A DNA stretch of 37,588 bases from a virus (Duplodnaviria; Heunggongvirae; Uroviricota; Caudoviricetes), in the IMG/VR virus record IMGVR_UViG_2563366827_000004, positions 1 through 37,588 of that record, one strand, 5' to 3'. Position numbers and translations under genes: made by a program. Below are positions 22,145-35,098 of the stretch, piece after piece; within the stretch, counting starts at the first letter, position 1; every line of letters starts with the position of its first letter. Under the pieces are notes generated by a model. That model was not told where the DNA came from. It ran no database searches and was given only the letters and a program-made list of their open reading frames with translations.

Positions 22145-22328
22145 CTCTTTCACTCCATCCGCGATGAACCATGAGAACGTCGTTGACGATGGCGTGCATT
22201 TTCCCGTCTTTATCATCAACGTATTTTCTGACCGTACCGCGACTACATTTCAGTCTGCGAGCTACTTCTGTCTGGTTTCCGTATGCTTCAACGAGCATGT
22301 CTGGAATGGTTTTTACTGAGAACGTCAT
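22122..22328 (-). CDS. ninH: NinH
   Basis: 68 aa, matches recalled lambda NinH. Confidence 0.85.
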
Positions 22329-22936
22329 GCGGCCTCACTTCTGCTATTTCGCAGGTCTTTGAGTTTCTGTTGGTACTCTGCCTTGATCGCCTTGCACTCT
22401 TCGATAGTCCAGCGATGGCGGTTATGGTTTGATTCGATTTCGTCTACTGCTTCCTGCCCGATTCGGTTAATCAGTTCGACGCGATACGGAACAAGATTTC
22501 CGCTTTTGTGCTGGTTGCACACCACGCATTGCTTGTGAATATTGCGTTCATCAAATCGGAGTTGAGGTGCCGCAGCAGTTGTCCGGTAATGCCCGGCATC
22601 CCACTGAGCAGACGTGAGCGTTCCGCACGAGATACATGGTAAGTCGCGGTCTCTTTCTCTGATGAAGGCGTTTACGGCTTGCTGGGCTTGTTTAATCCAG
22701 TAACTGCGGGGCTTTAAGGCGAGTTTTCGAATCTTCAGTTTATCTTTCTGTTTCTGCTCCTCTCGTCGTCGTTTCTTCTCTGCTGCTTTTTCCGCTTTTT
22801 CGCGTTCTTTGCTTCGTCGTTCGAGTGCTATCTTTGTTCCACACTCTGGAGAGCACCACCACTGATTAGCGAATGCAGGGTGAAACCATTCCCGACATTC
22901 TTCGTTTTTACATCGTCTTCGCGCTGGTTTAGCCAT
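22325..22936 (-). CDS. ninG: NinG (Rap) recombination-associated protein
   Basis: 203 aa, [20 protein letters not shown]..., matches recalled lambda NinG. Confidence 0.9.
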
Positions 22937-23643: not shown

Positions 23644-24167
23644 TCTGCCCTCCTGACGCCCTGCCCGATCGCCATCAATGCCGCTTTGGATACGGTAGTA
23701 AACATCCGTCGAGGACTGATGAACGGTCGCCAAATCAGCAGCATGGAGCCTTTGCTGTTTCCCTTCTTCTCCAGCCCTGTCGATGGTTCGATAAAATTAA
23801 TCCGTCCATCAGTGATAATGCGAACTTCGTCGACACTCTCCAGAGCCTTGCTGAACCATCCGACTGACATATCCTCTGGCACAAGCATAACTACCGTCTG
23901 TCGCTGTTGTATGCACTGCTCAGCGGCTTTATCCACCCACGGCCTGATATTGCTGTACGGTGGGTTATTCCAGATTGCACCGTGGCTTACCCACTCAGAA
24001 TTGAGCGCGTCGTCGGCCTCAGTTAGCCAGTGAGCACACAGAGCATTTTTGTCGCTCGCTGCCGAATCCAGCCAGAATCCAAACTCAATATCCAGTGCAT
24101 CAAAAAGCCAAAGCGGCGTTTGCCAGCAGTCCTTGTCGTGTGCTGGCGTATTTGATTTGATAGTCAT
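23640..24167 (-). CDS. Phage Dam-like DNA N6-adenine methyltransferase (orphan)
   Basis: 175 aa from [25 protein letters not shown]...; NPPY catalytic motif ([10 protein letters not shown]); no adjacent restriction gene. Confidence 0.7.
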
Positions 24168-24604
24168 GCAGCCCGATCTCCCCATCGCGCTTTCCACTCC
24201 AGAGCCAGTCGCGCTTCGTCTGACCACTTAACGCCACGCTCTGTACCGAATGCCTGTATAAGCTCTAATAGCTCCGCAAATTCGCTTACACGCATCCTGC
24301 TGGTTGACTGGCCTATTACCACAAAGCCATTCCCGGCAAGGTTAGGAACAACATCCTGCTGCTTTAATGCTGCGGTAAACACACACTTCCAGCTTTCTGC
24401 ATCCAGCCAGCGACCATGCCATTCAACCTGACGAGAGACGTCACCTAAGCAGGCCCATAGCTTCCTGTTTTGGTCTAAGCTGCGGTTGCGTTCCTGAATG
24501 GTTACTACGATTGGTTTGGTTGGGTCTGGAAGAATTTGCTGTACTGCGTGAATAGCGTTTTGCTGATGTGCTGGAGATCGAATTTCAAAGGTTAGTTTTT
24601 TCAT
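24164..24604 (-). CDS. ninB: NinB (Orf) recombination mediator
   Basis: From MKKLTFEIRSPAHQQNAIHAVQQILPDPTKPIVV..., near-identical to recalled lambda NinB. Confidence 0.9.
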   Translation of the reverse strand: MKKLTFEIRSPAHQQNAIHAVQQILPDPTKPIVVTIQERNRSLDQNRKLWACLGDVSRQVEWHGRWLDAESWKCVFTAALKQQDVVPNLAGNGFVVIGQSTSRMRVSEFAELLELIQAFGTERGVKWSDEARLALEWKARWGDRAA

Positions 24605-24620
24605 GACTTCCCTCTCCCCC

Positions 24621-24652
24621 AAATAAAAAGGCCTGCGATTACCAGCAGGCCT
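24621..24652 (-). terminator. tR2-like intrinsic terminator between helicase gene and nin region
   Basis: Minus-strand hairpin AGGCCUGC-N8-GCAGGCCU (8-bp perfect stem) followed by UUUUUAUUU. Confidence 0.6.
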
Positions 24653-29780: not shown

Positions 29781-30404
29781 ATGTCATCAATCCGCTTAAC
29801 TACGAGAATGAAAGAGGAAATCGCTCGTAACGCTTTAATTAAGTCTGGGGTTTTCACTGAACTTGAAGAAGTAACAAAGTTAAAGAACCAGCTTGCACTT
29901 GACGCCAGAGTTATTGCGTTTGGCGGTAAAAAGAAAACTGAGGAAGTGGATCGGTTATCATCCAAGTTAGCAGCTATAAGTGAAGAACTTGAGAAGATGG
30001 GATGTTCATTTTACTCATGCGATGTTCGTTCTGCTTCGATTTATCTGACTGTATCTGGAAGAAGGGTTGGCTGGCATTCATACGGAAAAGACGGCAACGG
30101 TGAAGATATATTGCTCCCCACCCCAGAAAAAGATAAATGCATGTTTGACGCAGAACACGAAATAACAAAAAGGTTTGATGAAATCTGCGCATTGCAACAA
30201 AAACTTGAAGCCAAGAAAAAGGATATCGAATCAAATGTATGGGCTGCTTTGAACTCAGTCACAACAGTTAAGCGACTTATTGAAGTTTGGCCTGAAAGCA
30301 AAGAATTGCTACCAAAAGAAGCAGATAAAGCAAGTACAGCACTTCCTGCTTTACGGGTAGAAGATTTGAATAAGATGATTGGACTTCCTTCCGAGGCCGC
30401 ATAG
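29781..30404 (+). CDS. Hypothetical 207-aa protein co-transcribed with N
   Basis: ATG at 29781 with GAGAGGAA RBS, 12 bp after the N stop; soluble, no recognised motif. Confidence 0.7.
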   Translation: MSSIRLTTRMKEEIARNALIKSGVFTELEEVTKLKNQLALDARVIAFGGKKKTEEVDRLSSKLAAISEELEKMGCSFYSCDVRSASIYLTVSGRRVGWHSYGKDGNGEDILLPTPEKDKCMFDAEHEITKRFDEICALQQKLEAKKKDIESNVWAALNSVTTVKRLIEVWPESKELLPKEADKASTALPALRVEDLNKMIGLPSEAA

Positions 30405-30576: not shown

Positions 30577-31545
30577 ATGAGTGAAGTAACAGATTTAGTT
30601 GTTATTGAAAAAGCAAATGCAATGACTGTATTTCAGTCTGCCGACCAGATTGAAGAAATCCTTCAAAAGGTTGAACGTGAAGTTATGTCCTTTGTGCCTG
30701 ATATCACAACGGCAAAGGGCAGAAAGGAGATCGCTTCTCTGGCGTATAAAGTTGCGCAAACGAAAACATATCTCGATGGTCTTGGAAAAGACCTTGTTGC
30801 TGAACTGAAGGAAATTCCAAAGCTAATTGATGCCAACCGCAAGACAGTGCGTGATCGCCTTGATGAGCTGAAAGCCAAGGCACGCCAGCCTCTTACTGAT
30901 TATGAGGAGGAGCAGGCGCGGATTAAAGCCGAAGAAGAGGCTAAGGCAGCAGCTGAAGCTCTCGCAAAGCAAATTGAGTCTGACCATGAAATAGCGATTT
31001 TGATGGATCGCGAATTTGACCGCCAAAGAGAAGAGGCAAGACTCAAAGCGGAGCAGGAAAAGCGAGAGCATGAAGAACGCTTAAAAAGAGAAGCTGAAGA
31101 GAAAGCCAGAGCAGAAGCCGAAGCAAAGGCAAAAGCCGAAATTGAAGCAGCAGCAAGGCGAGAAGCAGAGGCTAAGGCCGCAGCGGAACGTGCAGAGCGT
31201 GAACGCATTGAAGCCGAGCAACGAGCACAGCGCGAAGCAAAAGAGGCAGCAGAACGGGCTGAAAGAGAAAAGCAGGCGGCAATTGAAGCAGAACGCCGAA
31301 AAGCACAGGAGGAGGCAGAACGAATCCGGCGCGAGGCTGAAGCAAAAGAGCAAGCCAGAATAGCAGAAGAAAAAAGAATCAAGGACGAAGAAGAGCGTAG
31401 AGCAAAGGATAAAGCTCACCGGAAAGAAGTAAATAACAAAATACTTGCTGACCTTATCAAGGTTGGCGCATCAGAAGATGTTGCTAAAAATATCATAACA
31501 GCCATCGTAAAAGGCGAAGTATTCGCAACAAAAATAACCTACTAA
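30577..31545 (+). CDS. Hypothetical protein with a long E/R/K/A-rich helical repeat region
   Basis: 322 aa; about 150 central residues are almost only E, A, R, K, Q; globular-looking N- and C-termini; GGAGG RBS. Confidence 0.7.
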   Translation: MSEVTDLVVIEKANAMTVFQSADQIEEILQKVEREVMSFVPDITTAKGRKEIASLAYKVAQTKTYLDGLGKDLVAELKEIPKLIDANRKTVRDRLDELKAKARQPLTDYEEEQARIKAEEEAKAAAEALAKQIESDHEIAILMDREFDRQREEARLKAEQEKREHEERLKREAEEKARAEAEAKAKAEIEAAARREAEAKAAAERAERERIEAEQRAQREAKEAAERAEREKQAAIEAERRKAQEEAERIRREAEAKEQARIAEEKRIKDEEERRAKDKAHRKEVNNKILADLIKVGASEDVAKNIITAIVKGEVFATKITY

Positions 31546-31569: not shown

Positions 31570-31701
31570 ATGATTTACGCAATCGCGGGAGGCGCTCGCA
31601 TGGGTGCCTTCCAACTAAATGAATCTTTACTTGAACGAATCACCCGTAAATTACGTGACGGATGGAAAAGAGTTGAGATCTTATTATGCGCAATGAAATA
31701 G
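31570..31701 (+). CDS. Possible small protein (43 aa)
   Basis: ATG 31570 after AAGGAA; below the track cutoff. Confidence 0.3.
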   Translation: MIYAIAGGARMGAFQLNESLLERITRKLRDGWKRVEILLCAMK

Positions 31702-31838
31702 CCATCAATCACCAGATGCTTCGTGCTGCACAGAACAAAGCAGTAATAGCCAGATTTATTGGTGATTCAAAAATGTGGCTTGAAGCAAATAAAGCGATGA
31801 AATCAGCTATCAACCTTCCGTGGTATCGCAGGAAATGA
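31686..31838 (+). CDS. Possible small protein (50 aa)
   Basis: Overlaps the previous ORF; stop overlaps the next start (ATGA). Confidence 0.3.
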   Translation: MRNEIAINHQMLRAAQNKAVIARFIGDSKMWLEANKAMKSAINLPWYRRK

Positions 31839-31993
31839 GTTTTACAGATAACTGGTCAGACGAAGAATTCATTCGTCAGATGAAAGATTTAATCGGTAAC
31901 GAAGGAGATATTCATGTCACTTGCAACCACAGTGAAGGAGAGCAAGTTACAGAGACGCATGTACACGCAGAAAGCTCTCTGGTATCGCCATAA
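31835..31993 (+). CDS. Possible small protein (52 aa)
   Basis: ATGA-coupled to the previous ORF; below the track cutoff. Confidence 0.3.
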   Translation: MSFTDNWSDEEFIRQMKDLIGNEGDIHVTCNHSEGEQVTETHVHAESSLVSP

Positions 31994-32092
31994 TGGTGAC
32001 CGCGAAGGAATGCGGGTATGCCTTAATTTGTCCCGAGTCGAAGTATTAAATCAGCGTTATTTCCTTGGGCCTTGTCCATTCTGAGGTGAATT

Positions 32093-32800
32093 ATGGATTT
32101 GAACAAATTCGATGAGCCATTCAGCCCTGAAGATATCGAATGGCGAATACAGCAAAGCGGTAAAACACGCGATGGCAAGGTGTGGGCTATGGTGCTGGCT
32201 TATATCACGAACCGGGCAATCATGAAACGCCTGGACGATGTTTGCGGCAAAGCAGGATGGCGCAATGAATACCGCGATATTCCCAACAACGGCGGCGTTG
32301 AATGCGGCATATCAATAAAGATTGATTCCGAATGGGTAACCAAATGGGATGCTGCTGAAAACACGCAGGTAGAAGCCGTCAAAGGTGGTCGTTCAGGTGC
32401 AATGAAGCGTGCTGCCGTTCAGTGGGGAATCGGTCGGTATCTGTATAACCTTGAGGAAGGTTTCGCACAAACATCTCTCGATAAAAAGCAGGGGTGGCAC
32501 AGGGCAAAACTGAAGGATGGAACAGGATTTTACTGGCTCCCTCCATCGCTGCCGGGATGGGCAATCCCAGCATCAGATAACAAACCATCACCAGAAAATA
32601 CCAACCAGAAATCTCCATCGGTTGACTGCGAACAAATCCTGAAAGACTTCAGCGATTATGCGTCAACAGAAACTGACAAGAAAAAACTCATCGAGCGTTA
32701 TCAGCGTGACTGGCAATTAATGGCTGGCAACGAGGAGGCGCAGGCTAAATGCGTTCAGGTAATGAACATCAGAGTTAACGAACTAAAACAGGCGGCATAA
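32093..32800 (+). CDS. Single-strand annealing recombinase (Rad52/Erf-type SSAP)
   Basis: 235 aa; motif AMKRAAVQWGIGRYLYNLE is typical of Rad52-like phage annealases; the C-terminal ~50 aa resemble what I recall of the P22 Erf C-terminus (unverified). Confidence 0.7.
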   Translation: MDLNKFDEPFSPEDIEWRIQQSGKTRDGKVWAMVLAYITNRAIMKRLDDVCGKAGWRNEYRDIPNNGGVECGISIKIDSEWVTKWDAAENTQVEAVKGGRSGAMKRAAVQWGIGRYLYNLEEGFAQTSLDKKQGWHRAKLKDGTGFYWLPPSLPGWAIPASDNKPSPENTNQKSPSVDCEQILKDFSDYASTETDKKKLIERYQRDWQLMAGNEEAQAKCVQVMNIRVNELKQAA

Positions 32801-33274
32801 ATGGCAAGCAGAGGCGTAAATAAGGTGATCATTATTGGTCGCCTTGGGCATGATCCAGAAATCAGATATTCACCATCAGGAACGGCATTTGCAAACCTTA
32901 CAGTTGCTACGTCAGAACAATGGCGTGATAAGCAAACTGGAGAGCAAAAGGAGCAGACGGAGTGGCACCGTGTGGTAATGAGCGGGAAACTAGCAGAAAT
33001 TGCCAGCGAGTATCTGCGAAAAGGCTCTGAGGTTTATCTTGAAGGCAAATTGCGGACAAGAAAATGGCAGGATCAAAGCGGACAGGATCGGTTCACTACC
33101 GAAGTTATCGTAGGCGTTGGTGGAACCATGCAAATGCTTGGTGGCAAGCAAGGAGGCAATGAACAGTCTTCACCTCAGCGAAATAACGGTCAGCAACAAA
33201 GACAGCAACCTCTGCAGCAGGGAAATCACAGCGAACCACCTATGAACTTCGACGATTCGGATATTCCGTTCTAG
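32801..33274 (+). CDS. ssb: Single-stranded DNA-binding protein
   Basis: 157 aa; OB-fold-like N-terminus, Gln/Gly-rich linker and acidic tail ending DDSDIPF. Confidence 0.9.
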
Positions 33275-33283
33275 GAGCTGAAT

Positions 33284-33763
33284 ATGAAAATCTGCTCAAG
33301 ATGCCATCAACAGAAGGAAGAAAAGGACTTTCAAATCAGAAGAGCATCCAGAGATGGATTAACTGCCGCTTGCCGGGCTTGCCTGGCTGAATACGACAAA
33401 GAGCGCGCGGGATTGCCACATCGAGTATCAGCAAGGAGAGAATATCAATCATCGGAACGCGGCAGAGAACGGTGTAACGCAGCCAAAAAGCGGTTCATTC
33501 AGAGCAACCCATGGAAAAGAAAAGCCCACATCATCGTGGGTAATTTTTTGCGCGACGGTAAGCTAATCCGACCACCACAATGTGAGTGCTGCGGATCAGA
33601 ATGTAAACCACAGGCGCACCACTGCGACTACAGCAAACCAACCGATGTGATGTGGCTCTGCAAGTCATGTCATGTCGAGTGGCACAAACATAACAAACCT
33701 ATCTACCCAGACGAGGAACCAGTAACTCTCCCCTTCCCTCGTCACGCTATTCACGCAATTTAA
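33284..33763 (+). CDS. HNH endonuclease-like zinc-binding protein
   Basis: 159 aa; N-terminal Cys pairs and C-terminal CECCGSE...AHHCDY...LCKSCHVEWH, an HNH-type motif. Confidence 0.6.
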   Translation: MKICSRCHQQKEEKDFQIRRASRDGLTAACRACLAEYDKERAGLPHRVSARREYQSSERGRERCNAAKKRFIQSNPWKRKAHIIVGNFLRDGKLIRPPQCECCGSECKPQAHHCDYSKPTDVMWLCKSCHVEWHKHNKPIYPDEEPVTLPFPRHAIHAI

Positions 33764-33776
33764 TCAGGAGAAAATC

Positions 33777-34070
33777 ATGCCAGCGCCTCTGTATGGTGCG
33801 GATGACGCGCGCCGCTGTTCCGGCAATTCCGTATCGGAGGTGCTGGATAAATTCAGAAAAAACTACGATCGAATAATGTCGCTACCGCAGGAAACGAAAG
33901 AGGAAAAGGAATTTCGCCATTGTATATGGCTTGCAGAGAAAGAAGAACGCGAGCGAATTTACCAGACATCAATCCGACCATTCCGCAAAGCCACATATAC
34001 CCACTTCCCTGAAATTGACCCGCGCCTGCGTAATTACCGCTCACGCTATGGCGCTATCAGTAATGACTGA
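33777..34070 (+). CDS. Hypothetical protein
   Basis: 97 aa; AGGAG RBS 6 nt upstream. Confidence 0.5.
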
Positions 34071-34080
34071 GGAATTTACC

Positions 34081-34245
34081 ATGAGAGGACTTGCATACAA
34101 TCCCGGCATTCTTCCGGCAGAAATGATTATTCGCCAACGCGTAAAGCCAATGCCATCGAGAGAGGAATTGCTCAAGAGAAATTCTTTTCCATCAGTAAAT
34201 CAAAACAAATATCTGAATGCGATGTGGCGGAGTGGGAAGAAATGA
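34081..34245 (+). CDS. Hypothetical small protein (54 aa)
   Basis: ATG 34081 after GAGGAA; start choice uncertain (alternative ATG 34060). Confidence 0.35.
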
Positions 34246-34778
34246 AACAAATGTCACTAATTGAGATGGATGGATTTCTGAAAGGTAAATGCATCCCACG
34301 AGATTTAAAGGTTAACGAAACAAACGCTGAATATCTGGTGCGTAAATTTGCTGAAGCGGAGGCCAAGATTTCGGCTCTGTCCGAAGACCACCAGAAAGCG
34401 ATTGAGTCAATTAAGCAGGCTGATGCGGCTGTTAAGTTGGCACACGAGAAGTTTTCGGCGCTGGCGGCGGAGAATGCGGGGCTGAAGTCTGGCGCTATGG
34501 ACGAAATCAAGGTTATCAACCGTGGAGGGCAGGCATATTGCGTAAAAGATGGAGTGCAAGTTAATCCCATGTATGCAAGAGGGTGGAATGACTATCGCGC
34601 AAAGTCTATGCAATCAGACACCCCAGCCACCGATGCTTTCCTGACTGAAATTGAACGCAAAGCAATCCGAAAGTTCATTAACAGCATTGAACACATCCTG
34701 CGTGACAAGTTGTCACCGTATGACACCGAAGAGATGCTTGAGACTATGCGTATTTTTCTGGAAGAACAGGGAGGCTAG
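34242..34778 (+). CDS. Hypothetical protein (178 aa)
   Basis: ATGA overlap with the upstream stop; GGAG RBS. Confidence 0.55.
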
Positions 34779-34783
34779 CAAAA

Positions 34784-35098
34784 ATGACAATCACAAAACA
34801 ACGAGTAGAAAAAATCATATATCGCCATGAAATGGGACTGAACAGCGATGTCACTGCCGAAGAGGTTTATGACCTGGCTGTACTGGCGCTGAATTTATCA
34901 AATATCGCAAACCTGAAGCGATACGAGCTTGATATGGGAGGTTGCGACTCGTGCGGTCAGGATTGTGGCGCTGACATGACTGAAGATTCTGATGGCGATT
35001 ATGTCCTGTTTGATGACGTGGTTAAGTTGTTTGAGTTTGATACAACCACTCAGAAGTTAGAAGGCCCAGCAAAGGAGACAACCAGTGAGCGAAATTGA
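34784..35098 (+). CDS. Hypothetical acidic protein (104 aa)
   Basis: ORF with RBS; cysteine cluster CDSCGQDCG. Confidence 0.5.
   Translation: MTITKQRVEKIIYRHEMGLNSDVTAEEVYDLAVLALNLSNIANLKRYELDMGGCDSCGQDCGADMTEDSDGDYVLFDDVVKLFEFDTTTQKLEGPAKETTSERN

Follow-up and report, generated by a model that had tools for sequence, protein, structure and literature searches.

Recombination modules of P22-like phages

In phage P22, whose recombination genes lie in the order arf-erf-abc1-abc2, the Abc2 protein binds RecC and alters the response of Escherichia coli RecBCD to Chi, and the structure of the RecBCD-Abc2 complex places Pro68 of Abc2 in the active site of PpiB (PMC9836394). Phages that encode Abc2 characteristically lack an exonuclease gene, and the Abc2-modified RecBCD has been proposed as their source of resection (PMC9836394, PMC5928155). 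HK620 carries a Sak4-SSB-Abc2 module in which the tail of the SSB stimulates the annealase (Hutinet et al. 2018, PMC5928155). A survey from 2025 described an 'ES18-type' Rec module composed of an anti-RecBCD protein, an SSB, a nuclease and a single-strand annealing protein (SAP), found in 25 of 314 lambdoid phages (PMC12315714). In the lambda Red system (Exo-Beta-Gam), Red-beta's C-terminal domain binds both Exo and the SSB tail. The module of phage Sf6, genes 33-25, was reportedly sequenced by Casjens et al. in 2004.

The locus is a near-copy of the Sf6 module

We analyzed a 37,588-nucleotide stretch of DNA from a tailed phage, referred to in its full length as the window. The recombination block at 32093-34070 and the genes discussed with it are as follows.

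30577-31545, plus strand: coiled-coil protein of the Sf6 gp33 type, homologue of phi80 Agt/Mog (upstream context gene)
31570-31701, plus strand: cIII, FtsH inhibitor (PF02061, E 3.3e-15; phrog_550, E 5.1e-20)
31686-31838, plus strand: Kil, cell-division inhibitor (PF06301, E 1.7e-20; phrog_2055, E 1.2e-35)
31835-31993, plus strand: small acidic protein of the Sf6 gp30 type, 52 aa (phrog_2123, E 1.4e-41)
31914-32084, plus strand: small basic protein of the Sf6 gp29 type, 56 aa (phrog_1723, E 9.4e-36)
32093-32800, plus strand: single-strand annealing protein, 235 aa (Rad52_Rad22, PF04098)
32801-33274, plus strand: bacterial-type SSB with the acidic tip ...DDSDIPF (PF00436, TIGR00621)
33284-33763, plus strand: predicted zinc protein of the HNH fold (beta-beta-alpha-Me), whose N-terminus forms a CxxC...CxxC zinc ribbon and whose middle part has four helices
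33777-34070, plus strand: Abc2, anti-RecBCD (PF11043, phrog_656, identity to P22 Abc2)
34081-34245, plus strand: P22 orf56 homologue, DUF2737-type (75% identity, E 4e-31; phrog_1117, E 5e-37)
24164-24622, minus strand, elsewhere in the same prophage: NinB, Orf-family recombination mediator (PF05772, E 1.3e-54)
22325-22936, minus strand, elsewhere in the same prophage: NinG/Rap-type branched-DNA endonuclease (PF05766, E 8.5e-92)

With high probability, the block serves homologous recombination as the Rec module in the N-antiterminated early-left operon of an E. coli/Shigella prophage of the P22/Sf6-like kind (Lederbergvirus-type), with Abc2-redirected RecBCD taking the place of Exo. As a type it is nothing new, being an ordinary and previously catalogued P22/Sf6-like gene set. 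Along the operon, cIII and kil are followed by an Arf-like acidic peptide, a small basic peptide, the annealase, the SSB, the HNH protein, Abc2 and orf56. The spacing is tight, with gaps of 0, 9 and 13 nt between the annealase, SSB, HNH and Abc2 genes. The region from 31.5 to 34.2 kb holds a single weak promoter-like match (9/12, at 31841) and a single weak terminator-like hairpin (at 33524, within the HNH ORF), counts that do not exceed the shuffle expectation. Both the spacing and these counts support a Rec module of the Sf6/P22 type, and the lack of any Chi site in the window was likewise counted in favor of a module of the Abc2/RecBCD type.

At the DNA level, identity to Sf6, IME10 and N7 is 97-98% from cIII to abc2; the 31.5-34.2 kb block is 98.3% identical to Sf6 genes 32-25, and 97.4% identical to IME10 over 92%. 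Sf6 shares the whole gene order, from the gp33 coiled-coil protein through cIII, kil, gp30, gp29, the gp28 annealase, the gp27 SSB and the gp26 HNH protein to gp25 Abc2. The two diverge past abc2, where Sf6 has gene 24 and the window has an IME10-like arrangement of the P22 orf56-type gene and an Ea22-like mosaic. The ORF at 34081-34245 was considered as a truncated Sf6 gene 24, and this assignment was rejected; the ORF resembles P22 orf56, and genes of the orf56 type also come after abc2 in P22, HK75 and mEp235.

The four classes that make up the ES18-type module (anti-RecBCD, SSB, nuclease and annealase) are all present at 32093-34070, and ES18 itself has them in the same order (SAP, SSB-1, HNH, Abc2), although its gp47 (HNH_3, PF13392) is unrelated in sequence to the HNH protein of the window. 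With P22 the locus shares the operon position, Abc2 (93% identity), orf56, the annealase's C-terminal domain (63%), an upstream small acidic peptide bearing the N-terminal motif of Arf, and the absence of an Exo gene. It differs from P22 in its annealase core, which is of the Rad52/Sak type (PF04098) instead of ERF (PF04404), in the SSB and HNH genes that stand in place of Abc1, and in an Arf similarity limited to about 20 residues. HK620 resembles it in the succession of an annealase, a cognate acidic-tailed SSB and Abc2, and provides the best experimental precedent for the window SSB; its annealase, however, is the RecA-like Sak4 and its SSB is not of the bacterial type. The likeness to lambda Red lies in the pairing of an annealase with control of RecBCD, and in a separate small helical C-terminal domain of the annealase. 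The module is carried by at least 97 of 5,426 complete E. coli genomes. In E. coli genomes, PGAP labels its products 'Rad52/Rad22 family DNA repair protein', 'ssb' and 'phage anti-RecBCD protein'.

Abc2 and the proposed source of resection

The preliminary description of this DNA reported no Gam- or Abc-like RecBCD inhibitor and listed the ORF at 33777-34070 as unknown. This ORF, separated by 13 nt from the HNH gene that precedes it, encodes Abc2. It matches the Pfam family Anti-RecBCD_p2 (PF11043) over positions 1-97 of 97 (E 5.6e-63, 209.6 bits against a cutoff of 25) and PHROG 656, 'abc2 anti-RecBCD' (E 7.7e-55), and is 93% identical to P22 Abc2 across all 97 residues. Pro68 is conserved (...SIRPFRK...), and three substitutions relative to P22 fall within residues 1-66, the stretch that includes the RecC-binding helices (residues 3-66). 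The same description held that a clear anti-RecBCD homologue would speak against its reading, and Abc2 is such a homologue.

Its statement that an Exo-like nuclease is lacking is borne out among the ORFs of the early left operon. Scans with Pfam, PHROG and NCBIfam found no lambda Exo, RecE or YqaJ among the ORFs at 28.7-37.3 kb and 20.8-27.7 kb, and no above-threshold family match to lambda Gam, GamL or Mu Gam among those of the early left operon. No counterpart of P22 Abc1 was found here either; the HNH protein, considered for this role, fails to align to it.

The proposed scheme for this gene set would begin with Abc2 acting on host RecC and blocking the normal Chi/RecA response, as seen for the P22 protein and expected here from the 93% identity. 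RecBCD would then, on the same P22-based grounds, resect the ends of the phage DNA to give a 3' single strand. The phage annealase, aided by the phage SSB, would pair this strand with its complement; loading of the annealase by Abc2-RecBCD is a proposal even for P22. No Exo gene would be needed in this scheme, because Abc2-redirected RecBCD would supply the resection.

A Rad52-type annealase with an Erf-type C-terminal domain

Residues 4-136 of the annealase match PF04098 (E 2.6e-26, 92.8 bits against a cutoff of 20.3, profile positions 7-153 of 153), in agreement with the Rad52-like core described before. The ERF profile PF04404 has no match to the protein at E ≤ 0.1, whereas the true ERF proteins of P22, HK022, EhrS_49, RCIP0098 and IME1369_01 match it with E values from 1e-18 to 1e-46. 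BLASTP against P22 Erf aligns annealase residues 157-235 with Erf residues 134-205 (63% identity, E 2e-30) and leaves the N-terminal parts unaligned. The protein is a domain chimera that joins a Rad52-type core, predicted to form the ring and bind DNA, to a C-terminal domain of the Erf type, as had been suspected from its last residues. Among the best 120 of its 5,270 homologues, all 120 contain PF04098, and most align with the whole query, its C-terminal domain included.

The AF2 model of residues 125-235 shows a three-strand WW-like segment (residues ~129-160), which is conserved, followed by a disordered linker and a three-helix C-terminal domain of the Erf type (residues ~179-234). The architecture of proteins with this domain was surveyed by tblastn against phages combined with Pfam, a word-indexed protein search with 62 residues having given 15 fragments only. 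The tblastn search with the domain retrieved 127 phage records, P22 erf among them. By analogy with Red-beta, the domain most likely acts as a partner-docking adaptor for the SSB tail, the resection machinery, or both. As it is also present on ERF proteins of phages without Abc2 or a phage SSB (EhrS_49), it is not an Abc2-specific adaptor.

The SSB and the variable slot before abc2

The TAA stop codon of the annealase (32798-32800) lies directly against the ATG of the SSB at 32801, as expected from the translational coupling proposed earlier. The SSB has a bacterial-type OB-fold (PF00436, E 1.7e-38, 131.3 bits against a cutoff of 26; TIGR00621, 180.6 bits against a cutoff of 53.95). Its C-terminus reads ...NFDDSDIPF and is followed by TAG, so that the acidic tail noted previously ends in a free IPF tip. 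In HK75 and mEp235, the SSB ORF runs 15 residues beyond the point where the SSB of the window stops.

For the downstream HNH protein, phrog_2340 ('endonuclease') is the sole profile match; no family was matched in Pfam (E ≤ 0.1) or NCBIfam (E ≤ 0.01), and neither a sequence nor a profile match was obtained against the PDB. In 29 homologues with identities down to 34%, residues C100, H112, H113, D115, H130 and H134 are invariant, and C103, C126 and C129 are kept in at least 90%. A conserved Cys4 zinc site thus flanks the HH...(N/D)...H catalytic motif, and the earlier assignment to HNH-type zinc-binding proteins holds. The protein would serve the module as an accessory nuclease that nicks DNA or cuts branches, or else be a mobile cassette.

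The first of these options, which we consider possible though somewhat doubtful, is that the module has a nuclease of its own in the HNH protein, which would nick or cut DNA at ends, at D-loops or at branches and in this way initiate or resolve recombination by the annealase, so that the module would make its own recombinogenic ends. P1 Ref, an HNH protein that acts with RecA, is offered as a precedent. The gene is packed 9 and 13 nt from ssb and abc2, its residues of the catalytic type vary little or not at all over the 29 homologues, and tightly packed nuclease genes are counted as legitimate members of Rec modules (PMC12315714). The slot between ssb and abc2 also varies among relatives. It is empty in the HK75 type, holds an unrelated HNH_3 protein in ES18, and holds a DnaQ-like exonuclease in mEp235 and epsilon34; relatives thus place other nucleases in the same slot. 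Two observations stand against this role: the near-identical HK75-type modules (27 phages) work without the HNH protein, and one E. coli prophage carries the HNH protein and the DnaQ-like exonuclease in tandem.

The boundaries of the gene bear on the other option. Its final 14 codons derive from the 3' end of an HK75-type ssb, the cassette being positioned between the IPF codon of ssb and these last 14 codons, and the Sf6 record already flags 14 SSB-identical residues in gp26. The PHROG profile stops at HNH residue 143, which leaves the 14-residue tail outside the HNH family, and only a few of the 29 homologues possess it, among them alleles of 51% identity that occupy this site. We hold it equally possible, though somewhat doubtful, that the HNH gene is a selfish, free-standing cassette of the homing-endonuclease type, inserted in the 3' end of ssb and playing no part in recombination. 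Besides the ssb-derived tail that now forms its C-terminus, foreign to the HNH family, this would account for the presence/absence polymorphism at a precise site and for the occasional database entries that are products of SSB-HNH and Exo-HNH fusion or of deletion; HNH genes have been cautioned to be mobile (PMC12315714). The sequences, however, fit insertion and deletion alike, and a slot that consistently holds nucleases of three unrelated kinds argues for a selected function and against a selfish cassette.

A broader proposal, which we regard as unlikely, combines two parts: that the Erf-type domain of about 70 residues is a portable docking adaptor that can be joined to annealase cores of unrelated kinds (ERF-type in P22 and HK022, Rad52-type here), and that the state of the nuclease slot toggles the SSB tip between free and masked. 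If it were true, the ...IPF tip would be free when the HNH gene is present and masked by 15 additional residues in HK75 and mEp235, and a cassette exchange at one junction would rewire the partners of the SSB and the annealase.

Flanking genes and Gam-like candidates

The preliminary description instead envisaged a module without inhibitor or exonuclease, in which new Gam- or Exo-like activities come from the coiled-coil protein, the tiny ORFs or the ORFs at 34.2-35.1 kb. With a canonical Abc2 in place, this appears highly improbable. One of the flanking unknowns is the Abc2 ORF; the others include cIII, Kil, an Arf-like peptide, orf56 and an Ea22-like protein, and do not resemble Gam or Exo. 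Comparison of the flanking ORFs with Gam, Abc2, Exo and Arf, as had been suggested, recovered Abc2 and the Arf N-terminus (~20 residues), and neither Exo nor an above-threshold Gam.

The tiny ORFs encode cIII, Kil and the Arf-like peptide, which also speaks against new activities of this kind. The last of these, the gp30-type protein, sits at the position of P22 arf, has 12 D+E against 2 K+R, and starts at an ATG overlapping the kil stop (ATGA). An Arf-family motif lies in its N-terminal 21 residues. The N-terminus is 52% identical (E 6e-7) to gp41 of Klebsiella phage RCIP0098, which in turn is 50% identical to P22 Arf over its full length (E 2e-15); the direct match to P22 Arf comprises only the 7-residue SDEEFI motif. 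The gp29-type ORF overlaps that of the gp30-type protein in a different frame and is annotated in Sf6 and mEp235; compared with ES18 gp50, its product gives a Smith-Waterman score of 87 and no BLASTP alignment.

One argument for additional Gam-related activities is the coiled-coil protein, which is 51% identical to phi80 Agt (322 and 322 aa, full length, E 1e-64), annotated as needed against GamL toxicity. The function of Agt/Mog is taken here solely from its GenBank annotation, 'anti-toxin for Gam; Mog'. Rotman et al. (2012) is said to be the primary paper on this protein. The coiled-coil protein is the only one of these neighbors with a link to RecBCD inhibitors, and solely through this annotation. 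It is 46-51% identical to genes at the same position in EhrS_49 and RCIP0098, and homologues occur in 160 phage records, nearly all of those listed bearing hypothetical or generic coiled-coil-type names. Against a role as a new inhibitor, Agt/Mog homologues are also found in phages without any anti-RecBCD gene.

The remaining signal comes from the ORF at 34224-34778 (184 aa), an Ea22-like mosaic protein. It matches Mu Gam below threshold in Pfam (E 0.058, 13.8 bits against a cutoff of 28.3) and by BLASTP (E 0.001), with a Smith-Waterman score reached by 2 of 2,000 shuffles. A Mu Gam-like assignment was nonetheless rejected after a full-library phmmer search (590 homologues), which revealed a hypermosaic coiled-coil family with the 'Gam-like' stretch as a swappable segment. 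When 30 members of this family were scanned with Pfam, coiled-coil families were matched, Ead/Ea22 was matched in three, and Mu Gam was not one of the families that two or more members matched.

Implications

As a discovery the locus carries little weight, being a near-copy of the 2004 Sf6 module whose type was classified in 2025 (PMC12315714). Its lesson is that a gene of 97 residues was overlooked by eye, and a gap in recognition was mistaken for a gap in biology. The Rad52-type annealase and its cognate SSB could be a candidate pair for recombineering. For the phage, the reading that we favor follows the textbook logic of P22-like phages, in which Abc2 takes over RecBCD and an Exo is hence dispensed with.

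Abc2 and the proposed source of single-stranded DNA

The recombination module of the prophage consists of four consecutive genes, the first three lying where the preliminary description had placed them:

32093-32800, annealase, 235 aa; Pfam Rad52_Rad22 (PF04098) at residues 4-136, E 2.6e-26
32801-33274, bacterial-type SSB; PF00436, E 1.7e-38; TIGR00621, 180.6 bits (cutoff 53.95)
33284-33763, predicted HNH-type protein, 159 aa, starting nine bases after the SSB ORF
33777-34070, Abc2, 97 aa; Pfam Anti-RecBCD_p2 (PF11043) end to end, E 5.6e-63; PHROG 656 'abc2 anti-RecBCD'

The preliminary description had reported no recognisable RecBCD inhibitor, but a clear anti-RecBCD homologue, Abc2, starts thirteen bases past the HNH stop codon, which is the kind of result that the description itself had named as a refutation. 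Across its 97 residues this protein shares 93% identity with P22 Abc2, Pro68 is conserved, and the NCBI pipeline labels the abc2 gene in E. coli genomes 'phage anti-RecBCD protein'. Judged by curated sequence thresholds, Abc2, the annealase and the SSB are members of the Abc2, Rad52-annealase and SSB families, respectively, and the identities of Abc2, the annealase core and the SSB are established at the sequence level.

P22 Abc2 attaches to RecC close to the Chi-recognition domains; RecBCD bound in this way is still an active helicase and nuclease but loses the normal Chi response. In the long-standing P22 model, Abc2 hijacks RecBCD to produce single-stranded DNA for loading of the phage annealase. 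Given its identity to the P22 protein, the window Abc2 would bind E. coli RecC; the hijacked RecBCD would then make single strand for the phage annealase and hand it off, a model step that is proposed in P22 too. Genes of the lambda Exo, RecE and YqaJ families were not found in Pfam, PHROG and NCBIfam scans of the ORFs at 28.7-37.3 kb and 20.8-27.7 kb, in agreement with the earlier reading of no recognisable exonuclease. Since RecBCD hijacked by Abc2 would supply the strand, the missing exonuclease is the expected signature of an Abc2 system and no gap. The Chi site (GCTGGTGG) is absent from both strands of the whole window, which is not significant alone with about 1.1 expected by chance, and fits the report of Sf6 and P22 without Chi.

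A Rad52-type core with an Erf-type C-terminal domain

The Rad52-like core noticed in the preliminary description corresponds to the PF04098 match. A Pfam scan of the ORF found no ERF-family match, placing the annealase outside that family by sequence despite the common 'Erf-like' label. The likeness of its C-terminus to P22 Erf, noted in the preliminary description, was borne out, with 63% identity between annealase residues 157-235 and Erf residues 134-205 (E 2e-30) and no alignment of the N-terminal parts. Used as a tblastn query, the C-terminal 77 residues retrieved 127 phage records. In every divergent carrier inspected (P22, HK022, Erwinia EhrS_49, Klebsiella RCIP0098 and Morganella IME1369_01), it sits behind a genuine ERF core (PF04404, E 1e-18 to 5e-46). 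The domain is thus native to ERF proteins, and the Sf6 lineage has it fused to a core of Rad52 type. This fusion is stable and widespread, as the annealase has 5270 homologues, and the best 120 of them all carry PF04098 and mostly cover the full query.

The AF2 model of residues 125-235 displays a three-stranded WW-like segment, a disordered linker and a three-helix bundle. The C-terminal domain occurs alongside Abc2 in P22, HK022, HK75 and the window, but also in EhrS_49, an annealase-only Rec module (PMC12315714) without Abc2 or phage SSB, and an identical domain adjoins SSBs with free as well as masked tails. An Abc2-specific adaptor role is thus unlikely. By likeness to the Red-beta C-terminal domain, our best guess is that it serves in docking, either to the host SSB or more generally.

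Residues 129-160 (window 32477-32572), placed after the Rad52 core and before the linker, show a conserved WW-domain-like pattern, GW..K.KD...FYW.PP.LP.WA.P, whose second Trp and LP.WA residues do not vary among 36 sequences. In the AF2 prediction the three strands of this segment are short, and its sole PDB sequence match is the Prp40 WW domain (E about 0.1).

The SSB tip and the variable interval between ssb and abc2

The annealase stop TAA (32798-32800) directly abuts the SSB ATG at 32801, and the SSB ends in ...NFDDSDIPF, the acidic tail already recognised in the preliminary description. In HK620, the acidic SSB tip was shown to stimulate Sak4; with this pair as precedent, the window SSB probably stimulates the neighboring annealase via its own tip. 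The window SSB stops right after IPF, whereas the ssb frame of HK75 and mEp235 runs beyond ...DDDIPF into APVTLPFPRHAIHAI. In the window, the 44 bases of this extension encode the HNH protein's C-terminal 14 residues. Such masked-tip SSBs, with an internal IPF followed by 15 residues, occur in HK75, mEp235, epsilon34 and ECP1. The extended junction was found in 17 phage records and the window-type junction, with a free canonical tip, in 8.

Searches of Pfam, NCBIfam, PADLOC and PDB gave no sequence match to the ORF at 33284-33763. Among 29 aligned homologues, the most distant at 34% identity, C100, H112, H113, D115, H130 and H134 are invariant and C103, C126 and C129 nearly invariant; a CxxC...CxxC pair is also present at the N-terminus. 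Together with the two-strand-plus-helix unit at the end of the AlphaFold2 model (pLDDT 92.8), these residues support the HNH-type zinc-binding assignment made earlier.

Alignment of the ssb-abc2 interval with those of HK75, mEp235 and ES18 shows that the HNH cassette is bounded precisely by the SSB IPF codon on one side and by the final 14 codons of an HK75-type ssb gene on the other (window 33257-33274 and 33719-33763; HK75 locus L009, 2120-2187; mEp235 locus L010). The cassette uses these ssb-derived codons as its own C-terminus, PVTLPFPRHAIHAI, and its position inside the HK75-type ssb 3' end accounts for the masked tips in sister phages versus the free tip of the window type. The 14-residue tail is missing from most HNH homologues and falls outside the PHROG profile; its sharing with the SSB was already remarked in the Sf6 GenBank record. 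Across the compared phages, the interval has four states:

Contents of the ssb-abc2 interval
Empty: HK75
Window-type HNH protein: window, Sf6, IME10, N7
Unrelated HNH_3 protein: ES18
DnaQ-like Rv2179c-type 3'-5' exonuclease: mEp235, epsilon34

In E. coli EC05 (locus L012, 2392-3428), the ssb-abc2 interval holds a tandem of the HNH gene and a gene for a DnaQ-like 3'-5' exonuclease. The 159-aa HNH ORF, although intact, is not annotated by RefSeq/PGAP in this strain or in TW14425 (locus L013, 2383-2884). Public databases contain SSB-HNH and HNH-exonuclease fusions made by deletions within the interval (for example ...TTEVIVG joined to NFLRDGK..., at IVG microhomology), and on this sequence evidence the interval is a rearrangement hotspot. 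The HNH protein may be a working recombination nuclease, or its gene may be a mobile insert, a caution also given in PMC12315714.

Flanking genes and the nin region

31570-31701, cIII
31686-31838, Kil
31835-31993, acidic Arf-like peptide, 52 residues
31914-32084, small basic protein, PHROG 1723
30577-31545, coiled-coil protein, 51% identity to phi80 Agt/Mog, full length, E 1e-64
34081-34245, P22 orf56 homologue, 75% identity
34224/34242-34778, Ea22-like coiled-coil ORF, weak Mu Gam signals
34784-35098, PHROG 3126
24164-24622 (-), NinB, nin region
22325-22936 (-), NinG/Rap, nin region

The tiny ORFs proposed earlier as Gam- or Exo-like suppliers are instead cIII, Kil and, from sequence likeness, a partial Arf relative in the Arf position: the first 21 residues of the acidic peptide are 52% identical to a Klebsiella phage protein (E 6e-7) that is itself 50% identical to P22 Arf over its full length (E 2e-15). 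Ahead of the annealase gene, the acidic ORF and the basic one share 80 nt, read in different frames. The annotations of Sf6 and mEp235 include both, that of HK75 includes the acidic ORF alone, and in ES18 and E. coli EC05 a single basic ORF of 62 aa occupies this position.

The coiled-coil protein belongs to the Sf6 gp33 / D3 orf53 family and is the sole neighbor linked to RecBCD inhibition, the link being the phi80 GenBank annotation of agt/mog as 'anti-toxin for Gam' and of gamL as 'toxic without Mog'. That record casts Agt/Mog as an antitoxin or modifier of GamL. Homologues occur in 160 phage records (Escherichia, Pseudomonas, Vibrio, Klebsiella and others), including phages without an anti-RecBCD gene; among the other records listed, most name it hypothetical, and nearly all use either that or a generic coiled-coil-type name.

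A Mu Gam reading of 34224/34242-34778 was rejected. When relatives were collected from the full library and aligned, they formed an Ea22-like coiled-coil family of hypermosaic type, and in a Pfam scan of 30 members Mu Gam was not among the families matched by more than one of them. Freely swapped segments lie between the conserved motifs of this family (ALAAENA and a second). Alignments to homologues start at query residue 7, so the start is probably ATG 34242, overlapping the orf56 stop as ATGA.

Further away, a complete Nmad5 protein (29781-30404; PF18757, 'nucleotide modification associated domain 5', E 5.9e-71) directly follows the N-like antiterminator gene, with no obvious partner enzymes nearby. 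Near NinB, NinX and NinG, the nin region encodes a Dam-type N6-adenine methyltransferase (PF05869, 23640-24227, -) and a calcineurin-like phosphoesterase (PF00149, 21479-22219, -).

Relatives and distribution

Sf6 genes 32-25 are 98.3% identical in DNA to the 31.5-34.2 kb block of the window, and IME10 is 97.4% identical over 92% of a 3.6-kb query. Among 314 enterobacterial lambdoid phages surveyed in 2025, 13 Rec-module types were distinguished, including the 'ES18 type' (anti-RecBCD, SSB, nuclease and annealase; 25 phages) and the 'HK75 type', the same module minus the nuclease (27 phages) (PMC12315714). Part of the annealase-to-Abc2 block is present in 1107 of 5426 complete E. coli genomes, and at least 80% of it in 97. 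The recombination module as a whole is ordinary and already known.
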